A program made the translations under genes and the position numbers. From Saccostrea echinata (Eukaryota), in the NCBI RefSeq assembly GCF_033153115.1, contig NW_026889798.1, forward strand, positions 1,302,001 through 1,366,000: a stretch of DNA of 64,000 nt, given 5' to 3'. The notes below the pieces were generated by a model. The model saw nothing but the letters and a program-made list of their open reading frames with translations. It was not told the origin of the DNA and made no database searches. Shown here piece by piece: positions 573 through 56,497 of this stretch (position 1 is the stretch's first letter; every line of letters begins with the position of its first letter).

Positions 573-809
573 GCCCAGCATTAATGTATCATCAGAACTA
601 TGATGCTCAGGCTCCTTGGGGCTTCCATACAGAAAATGCAATCCAGCCACAAGGGCAAACAACACCACAGCCATTTTTACAGCAACAACAGCAACAGCAT
701 CAACAACAATTAATTAATGAACAAAAAGAGCGATTGACACCACATAAAAATGAAGCCTTTATGACATCTAAGCAGCCTCACTTGAATCAGCAGATGACAT
801 ACACTTCAA
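573..809 (+). CDS. Internal exon 1 (in-window) of a multi-exon gene; Gln-rich low-complexity segment
   Basis: Acceptor atattttAG (571-572), donor GTatga (810). Phase 1-1, open frame PALMYHQNYDAQAPW...QQQQQQHQQQ...QMTYTS. Paralogous to exon 3312-3533. Confidence 0.8.
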
Positions 810-3311
810 GTATGAATGTTTTTTTTTCTCAGTAACAACCAGTAAATTAAGTAAGATCCTGGAGTGCTCAGATTACCCTTTTCACATTTTTTGCTTTTTT
901 GGTGTCTTGAACATTTTTGACTGAAGAACCACAACATGTTTACATATATCCAAAGGAATTAGGTTTTAAAAAGCACATAAATCAATTCCTTTTAGCTTAG
1001 ATTGAAAACAAAGTCCTCTCTGATGAAGGGAGAGAGGCTCCTAGTGTTCAAAAAGGTCATCTGGTTTAAGATCTGCGAGCCCAATCATCAAATAATTTTG
1101 CAACTGTCACCACTTTGTGTTGTTTCAAGTTTATCATGTTGTAGTGTGGTTTTCGGGTATGCATTGATGTCTTGCAATCACGAATCCGCCTATCGTGACT
1201 TACATTGCTGAGATCATGACGCCTAGTCAAATAAATATGTGGAACAACATACCACAGAATTGTTTCCAAAACGCGTCTCTAAGCACCGGATTATTATTAT
1301 AGCACTGTCCTCATCGGGGTAAAATTTGTTACAATTTGTTACAATCATGAAACCAAACTACACTATATAAACAAATGATAGTTATCAATTTGATTTCTCT
1401 ACTTTGATTTTCTTAAAACATATTTTGTATATCATACATAAATAGAGGGCTATAGAGGAAAAACGAGTACAACCAGACTTTTGTGACTGGAGTGAGCATT
1501 GTAGCTTATAGGCTTTCTTGTTAGCTAAAGGTTTAGTAAGCTTTTCTTGTCAATGTGTGTCCCTGTCTGTTGTTTGCTTCTGTCATTTTTAAAAACAATC
1601 TAACTTCTCCTCCAAGACAACCAGAGAACATGCTGTTAATCATTCTAAAGTGAAGAAAAGTCGGGTTGTTCAAAGGAATAGACACACACCCTGTCAAGGG
1701 GACTTAATTAGGAAACATTGATCATTAAGTTTGGTCATTTCAGAATCTTCTTCTCAAGAACCATATTAGAGAAAGGTGAATCTTATATGAAAGATTCCTA
1801 AAATTGAATGCATAATAAGACGGCGGAATGGATGAGGCTATATTTCAGCATTGAATAATTAAAGCTTTGGTTTATTAGGTTATCTTTATTCGCTCAATAC
1901 AAGCGGGGTTTGCAGGAAAAATTCAAATAATGCCTTCTAAGGCTTCAGGTTCAATGCCACAATAAGTGTTCACATTTTTACATGAGAATAAATAGAAAAA
2001 GAACAGCGAGGTCATGATTAGTGCGATTAAAGCTGAACATTTAGGTAGAAATTTATCCTTGATCGCCATACTCTTCGTTCGCCTCTTTTTTTTTCTTTTT
2101 CGTCCCTATAAAGGCATCTGCCTTTAAAGCAGTTGATCAGAAGGTCGACCAGTTTGAGGGCATTTGGAATATTTAATGTTAAGTGTGTGACAACATTTTG
2201 TCTTTTTGGAGACATTCGGGGTTCTTGCCACAGTGTTGTGGGCGTTTCCAGCCAACAGTAACTGCAGTGCGCTGTTGTCTTTATTAGGTAGCCTAGGCAG
2301 CCTGAACACAATATGATAAACGAAAATTTGATATTTTATTTTTCTTATTAAATATCTTAAGATATCAAACAAGTCCAAAATACATAAATTTTGTAGCATT
2401 TTCATCAGAGTATGTATTGATGTCTCGCGAATAGGAATACACCTAGTTTACAATTAGGTCAATCAACCATGAATTACAAGGAATGCGTATGAATCTTGCA
2501 ATTCAAAGTTGCTTACCGAAAGATCATTAATAAAAATATTTCTGACAAAATACATATATACTTAGAGATGTGTATATTTTGAAGAAACTATGATAATACT
2601 GTTACCATTACGAAGTGTTTTGGAGTTATAGAGGTATAACCCCTGCCCCCGCCCCCCAGCTTTTACACGCATTTTGATGATAATTAACAAATCGTTAGCA
2701 AATGTGAAAGGATTCATATGGGTAGGAATTTTTTTGCTGGAACAGCTTGGCAATGGCAACAGTTTGTCAAATCATTATGCAAACTTTGTCAGGCAGTGAT
2801 ATTCAATTTAGTTAATTTCTTTTTCTAGGATTGAGCAATATAAAACGGTTCTTTTTTGCAAAGGACTAATTAAATATGCGATAAAGATTTAAGAATCCTT
2901 ATATAATGCAGACGTAAAACTGTTCTAGTCATTTTGCCAGTAGAAAGAACATTCTATTGGTAAAAATACTTATAAATCATATCAAAAATGTCATGAAAAA
3001 ATTTAGGAAACATTAGTTGGATCAAAATACTACAAGTAGTATTTGTGCACAGTGTTATGCGCTTTCAAGTTTGAATCACCCCTTCCTAAATTAAAGTAGG
3101 AACTGCAATAAGGATCCAGTACTGATCTTTTATGAGTGACTCTTCTTGGGGCATAATAACTAGTACATGTATGGGCTTCATTGATCTACAAGTTCCTTGA
3201 CTACAGAAAATGTGACTCAGGGGAGCCTTCAAAGGATATATTTTCTTAGTTTAATAATGATATTAGAAGAATAATTTTTTTTTTTGTTAGAATGTCGTTG
3301 ATTTATTTTAG

Positions 3312-3533
3312 TACCAGCAATATTTTATCCTGAAAACCATGAAGCTCAGGCGTCTTGGAGCATATATCCATTCATCCAGCAGCAAGGGCATACAACACCA
3401 CAACCAGCTCAACAGCAACATCAGCAACAACACTTAATGTCGGGACAAAATGAGCGATTGTCACCATATCGAAATGATGCTTATATGCCTTCTCAGCTAC
3501 CAACATTTAATCAGTACATGGCAACTCCTTCAA
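3312..3533 (+). CDS. Exon 2; Gln-rich, duplicate of exon 1
   Basis: Acceptor tttattttAG (3310-3311), donor GTatga (3534). Phase 1-1. PAIFYPENHEAQASW...QGHTTPQP...ERLSPYRNDAYM...MATPS aligns end to end with exon 1. Confidence 0.8.
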
Positions 3534-54543: not shown

Positions 54544-56302
54544 ATATTTTTGTCCGTGCGTCGTCCGTCGCGCGTTAACATTTAAACATTTTCAGCTTCT
54601 TCTCTCAAACCGCTCAACCAATTTCAACCAAATTTGGTATATAGGATCTATAGACGAAGTGGAACAAAAATTGTGAATTTCATGGTCCCTGCCCCCCTGG
54701 GGCCTGAGGGGTGGGGCTAAAACCACTAAAATTAATGCAATCTTTAAAAATCTTCTTCTTTACTCCTGGACATCAAGCAGTCAAACTGTTGGCATGATTG
54801 TAATAAGCATTGAGCCCTCTTCCAACATTTTGAAATTCATGGCCCCAGTATAAGGGGTTCTGGTGCTAGGGTGGGGCTATATAGATCATATAGTGAGAGC
54901 CCCCCCCCCTTCATCTTCTTCTCTGCTCCTGGGTATTAGATAAACTAACTAAGTACATAGTTATGTTGAGCATAGCTGCCTCTTCCAAAATTGTGAATTT
55001 CATGGCCCCTGGGTCAGGGGTTCTGGTGTTAGGGCGGGGCTCTATTGATTATATAATGAAAATGCATTATATCTTTGAAAATCTTCTTCTCTGCTCCAGG
55101 GTATTAAATATCTTAACTAAGTACATAGTTATGATGAGCATAGCTGCCTCTTCCAAAATTGTGAACTTCATGACCCCTGGGTCAGGGGTTCTGGTGTTAG
55201 GGCGGGGCTCTATTGATTATATAGTGAAAATGCATTTAATCTTTGAAAATCTTCTTCTCTGCTCTTGGGTAAGAACTAAACTAACTAAGTACATTGTTAT
55301 GATGAGCATAGCTGCCTCTTCCAAAATTGTGAATTTCATGACCCCTGGGTCAGGGGTTCTGATGAAGGGGGGGGGGGCTCTATTGATTATATAGTGAAAA
55401 TTAATAATTTCTTTCAAAATATTTTTTCTACTCCTGCTTATAAAGCAAAGAAACAAGTGTATAGTTATGATGAGCAAGAATGCTTTTACAATTTTTTTCA
55501 AACTTGTGGTCCCAAGAGTTCTGATGTTTCTCTAAAGGGAGGGGGGTGGGGGGCTCTATTTGATTATATAGTGAAAATGTGTGAATTCTTTGAAAATCTT
55601 CAACTAATTGCATAGTTATGATGATGAGAGTACCTCTTCCAAATCTGTAAATTTTCATGACCCAAGGTCATGGGTTCTGGTGTTAGGGTAGGACTGTGTT
55701 AAATGGTGAAAATGCATTATTTCTTCGAAAATCTCCTCTGCTCCTGGGCATATTGGAAGCAAACAGAGTAAAAGTTTTAATGAGCAAGGGTATTTTTACC
55801 AGAATTTTGAATCTGGACCATTTAGTCAAGTGTTTTGGTTCTGGCCAGGGATCTATTAATTTGCATTCTATTGAGTGAAGTTATTCCCCTTTGCCATTCA
55901 CTTTTGATAATTAATCACTGTAGAAAATGTATTTGAAAGGTTAATACAATAAGAGAATTATGCAAGAACTTTTATTGTATAATACAAAAAGTACTTTCAT
56001 AGTTTTAATAATCAGGTAGACTTGGAAATAATAGATGAATAAAAATGAAACAAAAATAACTTATCTTCTTAAATGTTCTTCAAAAGCCAAGTGAGGCCAA
56101 TGTGAGAGGTAATAATATAGACATTTTATTAAAAGTCTGCATGGTAATAGTGGTAAATGGGGGACAGATAGAAAGATACTAGACCAATTATTTTGTTGAT
56201 CATAATCATAGTATTTTTCTTGCTATTGGGCAACAAAGCTTCATTTATCAGTTTATGGATCCTCTAAATTGTTGTACTCAGGTGACCGATAAGGCCTCTT
56301 GT
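54505..56302 (+). mobile_element. Helentron-type HINE with ~178-bp tandem array, present only in copy 2
   Basis: 5' ttttaggtcacctgagtcactcaggtgacc hairpin, (cgtc)n, 3' actcaggtgaccgataaggcctcttgtt; empty T-run site at 36151-36156. Confidence 0.9.
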
Positions 56303-56338
56303 TTATGAAAGAAGTGATTTGAATATTTATTTTTACAG

Positions 56339-56497
56339 TAAAATTGCCGCCTGCTGCATTAAGGATGACCCCAGAGAAAAAGAACAAATTTTGCAGTTTC
56401 GTCAAGGGATTTAATAAAGAACGTGTACATCATGGATTGAATCTATGCAGTCTTTTTGGATCGTTTTTGATTGATCTAAATACGCCTAAAAAGAAAG
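56339..56497 (+). CDS. Exon 11; duplicate of exon 9
   Basis: Acceptor tttttacAG (56337-56338), donor GTaagt (56498). 159 nt, phase 1-1. 12 substitutions relative to exon 9. Confidence 0.75.

Follow-up and report, generated by a model that had tools for sequence, protein, structure and literature searches.

The window analysed here is a stretch of 64,000 nucleotides (nt) of the Saccostrea echinata genome (assembly GCF_033153115.1, contig NW_026889798.1, positions 1,302,001 to 1,366,000), in which an earlier note, made from the letters alone, had joined eleven plus-strand exons (here E1-E11) into a hidden gene of their own. All 11 exons were rebuilt with AG/GT ends and with start phases of 1,1,1,2,0,1,1,1,1,1,1 as claimed, and the joined frame is 3,363 nt long with 0 stops. 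As a stand-alone gene the frame did not survive: it has neither a start nor a stop codon in the window, and with three exons before E1 and nine after E11 it extends to 23 exons, which join into 7,296 nt encoding 2,431 amino acids (aa) from ATG to TGA, with canonical splice sites throughout (Table 1). In order, the exons encode glutamine-rich (Q-rich) segments and an 11-aa tandem repeat; four modules related to one another come next, then Roc-COR, and last a trypsin-like protease that an insert exon interrupts.

The predicted product is a Roco GTPase and not an orphan protein; Roc and COR both score above their Pfam cut-offs in the frame. The second Roc exon matched PF08477 with 29.8 bits against a cut-off of 27, and the next large exon, directly after Roc, matched PF16095 (COR; E-value 2.7e-13). 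The Roc motifs G1-G3 are in frame as P-loop GCAGAGKTT, STVG and DFAG. Pfam searches of the exons scanned and of the proteins P0001, P0004 and P0008 gave no leucine-rich repeat (LRR) or protein kinase family, and in the exons scanned no STAND NTPase domain reached its cut-off, the Roc exon showing just weak P-loop cross-matches. Homologous proteins bridge the junction types of the model: P0008 extends from the ATG exon past E8 as far as Roc-COR, P0004 joins E8, an E9-type exon, an E12-type exon and then Roc, and in P0012 E6-E7-E8 are joined with Roc-COR and with the three protease exons of the model (insert included). We consider it highly probable that the window exons are the middle of a single 23-exon oyster Roco gene.

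Table 1. Exons of the 23-exon model and associated large features (window coordinates, except where the contig G000:C49 is named)
Feature	Coordinates	Strand	Remarks
ATG exon	G000:C49:1299551-1299641		upstream of window; contains start codon
Q-rich exon	G000:C49:1300360-1300584		upstream of window; phase 1-1
Q-rich exon	G000:C49:1301168-1301395		upstream of window; phase 1-1
E1	573..809	+	Q-rich, phase 1-1; number three of the four Q-rich exons; P0008, a homolog, starts with the same exons
E2	3312..3533	+	Q-rich, phase 1-1; 49% identical to E1
E3	4614..5352	+	carries 33-nt (11-aa) tandem repeat
E4	6545..6650	+	linker exon, phase 2-0
E5	8327..8444	+	KRPK linker exon, phase 0-1; in-phase alternative donor 8450
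E6	8921..9343	+	module 1, phase 1-1; diverged relative of E8/E10/E12
E7	10919..11086	+	short phase 1-1 exon 3' of module 1
E8	29959..30474	+	module 2, phase 1-1; predicted winged helix (residues 1-100) plus helices
First copy of intragenic tandem duplication	34548..52883	+	E9 and E10 with introns
E9	36192..36350	+	short exon, phase 1-1; first 24 residues like start of first Roc exon
E10	45716..46225	+	module 3, phase 1-1; 40% identical to E8
Insertion	47189..52441		5.25 kb; not in duplicated copy; similar ends; RNase H-like and tyrosine-recombinase remnants
Second copy of intragenic tandem duplication	52895..64000, on to G000:C49:1382422 (window coordinate 80422)	+	E11 and E12
E11	56339..56497	+	phase 1-1; duplicate of E9, 83% amino-acid identity
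E12, module 4	G000:C49:1380958-1381467		downstream; 87% identical to E10
Roc exon 1	G000:C49:1383099-1383353		downstream; P-loop
Roc exon 2	G000:C49:1383435-1383647		downstream; PF08477 match
Roc exon 3	G000:C49:1384421-1384518		downstream
COR exon	G000:C49:1384733-1385912		downstream; PF16095 match
Linker exon, 72 nt	G000:C49:1388803-1388874		downstream; predicted from splice sites and frame only
Protease His exon	G000:C49:1388967-1389146		downstream
Likely Death-like insert exon	G000:C49:1389283-1389504		downstream
Protease Asp/Ser exon with stop	G000:C49:1389578-1390242		downstream

The pattern of eleven exons in the window is genuine and more than chance would give. A rough scan looked for stretches of at least 150 nt that are phase 1-1, free of stops and bounded by splice sites: 17 of its 19 plus-strand candidates lay on model exons and the other two formed one locus inside a dispersed repeat; the minus strand gave 5 candidates. 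The exon order of the window is matched by segments of annotated oyster proteins. For E5, the donor at 8444 is more likely than that at 8450; both give the same phase, and the former gives the junction found in P0001.

The same 23 exons are present on a second contig (G000:C44), which is not independent support, since both copies come from one assembly. The two copies are 99.6-99.9% alike from approximately window coordinate 7,200 to 84,000 and about 90-97% alike, with insertions, on either side; the changes in identity fall near E4 and after COR. The repeat in E3 has 19 units in the window copy and 15 in the second. A 'stop' in the G000:C44 protease exon was considered as disabling and rejected: it is the natural stop, shifted by a 6-nt deletion.

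Several points can be held against a single gene. Introns of 19-22 kb leave room for alternative gene structures. No exon-exon joint was found in four of five presumed-RNA runs, compared with 45600-47610, where the matches were mostly 85-95% and came from relatives and repeats; the RNA nature of these runs was guessed, and the result speaks neither for nor against splicing. One read contig (X5) stops matching two bases before the E10 donor and then continues. Finally, the RefSeq model P0001, which is 100% identical over E6-E8 and E10, leaves out E9 and terminates after E10 in an exon at 47394-47602, without Roc. Such an ending would suit an arrangement of two units, namely a Roc-less protein of about 1,000-1,100 aa ending at 47394-47602 and an E11-E12-Roc-COR-protease unit that is either separate or orphaned. 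The gene would then have been cut by the insertion at 47189-52441, which we take to be DIRS-like from its set of domains. A phase-1 acceptor and an in-frame stop are indeed present for the 47394-47602 exon, but the exon falls in a dispersed repeat with 20 genome matches, is not in the duplicated copy and occurs, among the 22 homologs described below, in none except P0001. The exons downstream of it are all open with canonical sites and match the G000:C44 copy, and E10 and E12 diverge with a nonsynonymous rate (dN) of 0.056 against a synonymous rate (dS) of 0.108. We regard the two-unit arrangement as improbable and read the DIRS-like transposon as offering a false or minor last exon. The open frame 47148-47602, which ends inside the insertion, was rejected as the true last exon because it is transposon-derived; the transposon-exon form may exist as a minor, sensor-only isoform alongside the long form. 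The insertion also holds a 30-nt tandem array (47615-48626, about 34 copies).

The single 23-exon gene belongs to a family in oysters. With E8 as query, 22 proteins were retrieved, each labelled Saccostrea or Ostrea, and 19 of them carry Roc. In this assembly, at least 149 Roc-exon matches and at least 72 module matches were counted; the counts come from single-protein searches, are lower bounds and include duplicate haplotype copies. With one split copy merged, 71 module exons were compared with 81 of the 149 Roc matches: a same-strand Roc exon lay downstream within 10 kb in 53 of 71 and within 55 kb in 68 of 71, none had one within 20 kb upstream, and 68 of the 71 modules lie on six contigs. 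By this adjacency, the module is a constant companion of Roc, on its N-terminal side, in a large family that is clustered. Paralogs on C13 and C50 (L060; L037, L041) have a broken module exon or a shortened match to the first Roc exon, and such broken paralogs likely reflect birth-and-death turnover in the cluster. In the titles and abstract beginnings searched, with most subscription journals and supplements outside the scope, no oyster Roco family with this module was found, and the part of bioRxiv 10.1101/2020.09.15.298695 that was available has no whole-word mention of Roc or COR.

The earlier note had described an unnamed domain of about 200 aa, present three times (exons 6+7, 8+9 and 10+11). 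For the long exons the relationship stands, E6 being a distant relative of E8/E10 in comparison with the module profile (match 96.9%, E-value 1.4e-10); the pairing of E7 with E9/E11 does not, and a fourth module, E12, lies beyond the window. Homology of E7 to E9/E11 or to the Roc-exon start was rejected by shuffles and profile comparison: 460/500 and 209/500 shuffles reach the scores against E9 and E11, and the profile match is 0.3%. In E9-type exons, the first 24 residues match those with which the first Roc exon opens (profile match 83.6%, E-value 8e-6). This likeness suggests that copying likely began with a unit made up of a long exon and the opening part of the Roc exon, across both of which the folded domain probably extends. 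From 52895 onward, the segment 34548-52883 recurs with its introns, and therefore E9+E10 gave rise to E11+E12.

Another reading takes the additional modules for an artefact of assembly or for dead copies. The near identity of the G000:C49 and G000:C44 copies, which are not independent, leaves some room for it, but the longer blocks of the duplicated units are about 80-93% identical, thus differing by about 7-20%, and differ by several large insertions as well. Homologs from two further oyster species carry 3-4 modules, and all module exons are without stop or frameshift; we consider this reading very unlikely.

The idea of an accordion-like protein that diversifies by module number is borne out in its broad lines. 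The modules are symmetric (phase 1-1), the intragenic duplication is recent, and across the 22 homologs, partial models included, one module is found in 4, two in 10, three in 7 and four in 1. Phase-1 borders are kept in paralogs, as surveyed at 30 loci by choosing, close to each expected position, the splice site that a simple score ranked best: phase 1 was found at 27/32 acceptors and 30/32 donors of long modules, at 11/11 acceptors and 9/11 donors of E6-type exons, at 10/10 for E7-type exons and at 28/30 Roc-exon acceptors. Module skipping has an echo in annotated isoforms of homologs, in 3 of the 7 pairs compared and at the level of annotation: isoforms X1 and X4 of Ostrea edulis LOC125676204 are exactly one 227-aa short-plus-long module apart, X1 and X2 of LOC125652354 are a 228-aa module and a different N-terminal part apart, and X1 and X2 of Saccostrea cucullata LOC134232014 are one 78-aa Q-rich exon apart; for the gene itself, however, no RNA junction was seen.

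E6-E10 gave no Pfam match. An AlphaFold2 model of the module (28 paralogs; predicted local distance difference test score, pLDDT, 87.6) has a core of helix-strand-helix-helix-strand-strand followed by further helices. A fold search with residues 1-100 returned winged-helix domains, with ORC1/Cdc6 as the best match (Z 9.5, root-mean-square deviation 2.9, 88 aligned) and MarR/ArsR regulators, archaeal ATPases and the wheat resistosome (Z 8.3) among the others; the matches listed are mostly known winged-helix proteins or domains with Z of 8-9.5. The module is thus predicted, from its model, to be a winged helix plus helices.

Regarding its ancestry, a profile search of 1.84 billion proteins gave just 90 relatives, and 9 of 10 looked up were labelled Saccostrea. 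Of these relatives, 31 were scanned: 19 have Roc, 10 have no family, one has HIRAN, and the weakest is an nSTAND3-ankyrin protein (P0132), matched immediately after its NTPase (E-value 6.7e-4). Three relatives of P0132 match at the same place after the NTPase. A profile of the nSTAND3 post-NTPase region (18 distinct sequences) matched the module at 83.6% (E-value 8e-6, 67 columns), as against 0.4% for the NTPase region. In the ESM Atlas, E8 retrieved bacterial clusters without names and, at 0.91 with just 137 shared features, a single nSTAND_NTPase4 cluster, which we treat as a lead only. Descent from the winged-helix region of STAND proteins is the probable origin of the module. Weighing against it, the winged-helix Z-scores are nearly tied, so that STAND is not favoured over MarR/ArsR/ORC domains; Foldseek gave no match at an E-value below 0.001 for the module model; by sequence, the module profile found no relative among solved structures (best E-value 0.14); taken singly, 1 of 21 genomic nSTAND3 frames scored above 10 bits; and the E6-type profile did not match the nSTAND3 post-NTPase region (0.9%).

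At the C-terminal end, the protease motifs occur in order as His TAFH, Asp DIAIL and Ser GASGSP. The His and Ser motifs are present in 13/13 homologs and the Asp motif in 9/13; on the last exon alone, Trypsin_2 scored 19.9 bits, under its cut-off. The 222-nt, phase 1-1 insert exon between His and Asp is matched in 8/13 homologs. Its 73 aa gave no Pfam match and nothing useful in the ESM Atlas, and were modelled as four helices; the top 7 Foldseek matches are Death-domain entries (E-values of 0.5-1.6, best TM-score 0.60), none of them significant. The modelled insert is likely Death-like. Close relatives end otherwise, in HEPN_DZIP3 (11/22), Death or a weak DED, and in COR two relatives with other effectors share about 80% identity with this gene. 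Judged by these sequences, the effector is interchangeable among close relatives, being a protease here and HEPN RNase-like, Death or DED elsewhere. The same split trypsin-like domain was observed on other oyster proteins (P0023-P0034), some without Roc and some with PF02338; one of them, P0027, is a Roco protein with an N-terminus that looks beta-propeller-like by eye.

Given one Roco gene, an intracellular sensor-switch-effector of innate immunity is a likely role for the product, and we place the probability of the single gene and the immune switch jointly at about 0.6. Activation would proceed through the GTP-dependent cycle of the Roc-COR dimer, as is general for Roco proteins. The mechanism is described as debated in parts of PMC6337361. 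In the scheme we propose, the last module, next to Roc, would continue into the helix at the Roc-exon start and form the constant part of the family, and the extra modules would be gained by tandem duplication of phase 1-1 exon pairs, would probably be lost by exon skipping, and would stand in for a leucine-rich sensor. A trigger would alter the GTP-dependent state of the Roc-COR dimer, and this change would bring the C-terminal effectors together, switching them on. In the available part of PMC8195603, bacterial Roc-COR proteins whose C-terminal effectors vary, with trypsin among them, are interpreted as systems directed against invaders.

A comparison with invertebrate immune receptor families, drawn by the earlier note, is plausible, but it is inferential and diversifying selection was not found. 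Median dN/dS was 0.43 for E6-type and 0.27 for E8-type exons against 0.10-0.20 for Roc-COR (whole-exon pairwise values; pairs not independent, saturated or broken pairs dropped), which suggests from sequence comparison that the modules evolve faster than Roc without an excess of amino-acid change. Medians that are all below 1 would suit a single Roco gene with a housekeeping or signalling role (cytoskeleton, trafficking) in which module number drifts neutrally and phase 1-1 duplications are tolerated. The region is rich in transposons, which favours duplication, and Roco functions are presented as poorly understood, with chemotaxis and cytoskeleton control in Dictyostelium among them, in the part of PMC11378527 seen. 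Against such a role stand the size and clustering of the family given above, effector swaps of a kind typical of conflict systems, and frameshifted or stopped paralogs among the genome matches; we hold it to be unlikely. A bolder version of the immune switch is a new class of intracellular receptor in oysters, in which an NLR-like STAND winged-helix part was grafted onto Roc-COR and multiplied as splice-adjustable baits, so that pathogen factors aimed at NLR winged-helix regions would hit the modules and fire the interchangeable effector, here a Death-linked serine protease. We offer this as a speculative and rather doubtful extension.

Among known systems, the gene shares the Roc-then-COR order and the G1-G3 motifs with the Roco family (LRRK2, DAPK1, Dictyostelium Roco proteins). 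Roco groups have LRRs, or a kinase plus a Death domain in DAPK1, as described in parts of PMC6337361, whereas the oyster gene is without LRR or kinase and has tandem predicted winged-helix modules upstream and a trypsin-like protease with a likely Death-like insert downstream. The brown algal LRR-ROCO genes, as far as the part of PMC11378527 consulted describes them, are likewise an expanded Roco family with same-phase repeat exons on the sensor side: one LRR is encoded per 72-bp phase-2 exon, up to 49, with shuffling and alternative splicing, and the proteins are proposed immune receptors. The oyster unit, by contrast, is a 220-230-aa pair of phase 1-1 exons encoding a folded domain in 1-4 copies. 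With exon-shuffled receptors generally (brown algal ROCO, Dscam type) it shares same-phase repeats in variable number, alternative splicing being seen in homolog annotations only. Bacterial AP-GTPase (Roc-COR) proteins have the same constant core, a variable C-terminal effector and many paralogs per genome, and in the portion of PMC8195603 covered their sensors are LRRs and their C-terminal effectors number at least 24, trypsin among them; the oyster gene differs as a spliced animal gene with predicted winged-helix modules, and the likeness in protease fusion is one of architecture. In animal nSTAND3-ankyrin proteins (NLR-like, PF20720), the region just after the NTPase resembles the module; the oyster gene is without a STAND NTPase, carries the region in several copies and links it to a GTPase. 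Expansions of NACHT and DZIP3-HEPN proteins in the pearl oyster (PMC9646362) and Aplysia TIR proteins containing Roc-COR (PMC9334734), both as given in parts of these papers, are comparable as clustered, copy-variable immune candidates, with HEPN/Death effectors and with Roc-COR in immune-type architectures; they have another core (NACHT) or other partners (TIR, LRR), and the module is not described in those parts.

What is new here is the undescribed module and the swappable effector; the Roc-COR core and the logic of same-phase exons are known. An 'uncharacterized' and probably truncated annotation is replaced by a defined architecture, and a clustered family comprising dozens of Roco genes in oysters is exposed, with an unnamed module and swappable effectors. 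If the immune reading is true, the family would be an animal parallel to brown algal exon-shuffled Roco and bacterial Roc-COR defence proteins, and its natural series (1-4 modules, four effector types) would serve the study of sensor-effector coupling by Roc-COR, a question shared with LRRK2. The loci are candidates for work on disease resistance in farmed oysters.

The introns hold many repeats. In intron 7, two long minus-strand frames at 23492-24469, Pro-rich and Ser/Thr-rich, were considered as a nested gene and rejected, being a dispersed repeat with 38 genome matches; about 190 nt present in other copies are missing from this one. The same intron contains a pair of 254-nt inverted repeats, 15176-15429 and 18860-19113, which are 96% complementary, lie 3.4 kb from each other and have 10-nt repeats inside them; they likely mark a DNA transposon of the non-autonomous type. 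Just after E9, 36670-39017 carries a 530-nt inverted duplication (95%), of which the second tandem copy apparently has one arm only. Intronic open frames on the minus strand at 13255-14450 and 46927-47190 are presumably fragments of long interspersed nuclear element (LINE) reverse transcriptase. Tandem arrays with units of 166-168, 144 and 76 nt lie at 39506-40383, 54816-55476, 14602-15110 and 20750-21284; those of 144-168 nt we assume to be of the Helitron-related kind common in oyster introns. Between E11 and E12, at approximately window coordinates 64,200-77,000, there are large insertions that are not in the first duplication copy, and an element there has a cysteine-rich frame that we take to resemble a P2X tail. 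Outside the window, the upstream neighbours are, by eye, presumably a 5'-nucleotidase, an LRR protein and an ArfGAP-like gene, and the downstream neighbour a synaptotagmin on the minus strand.

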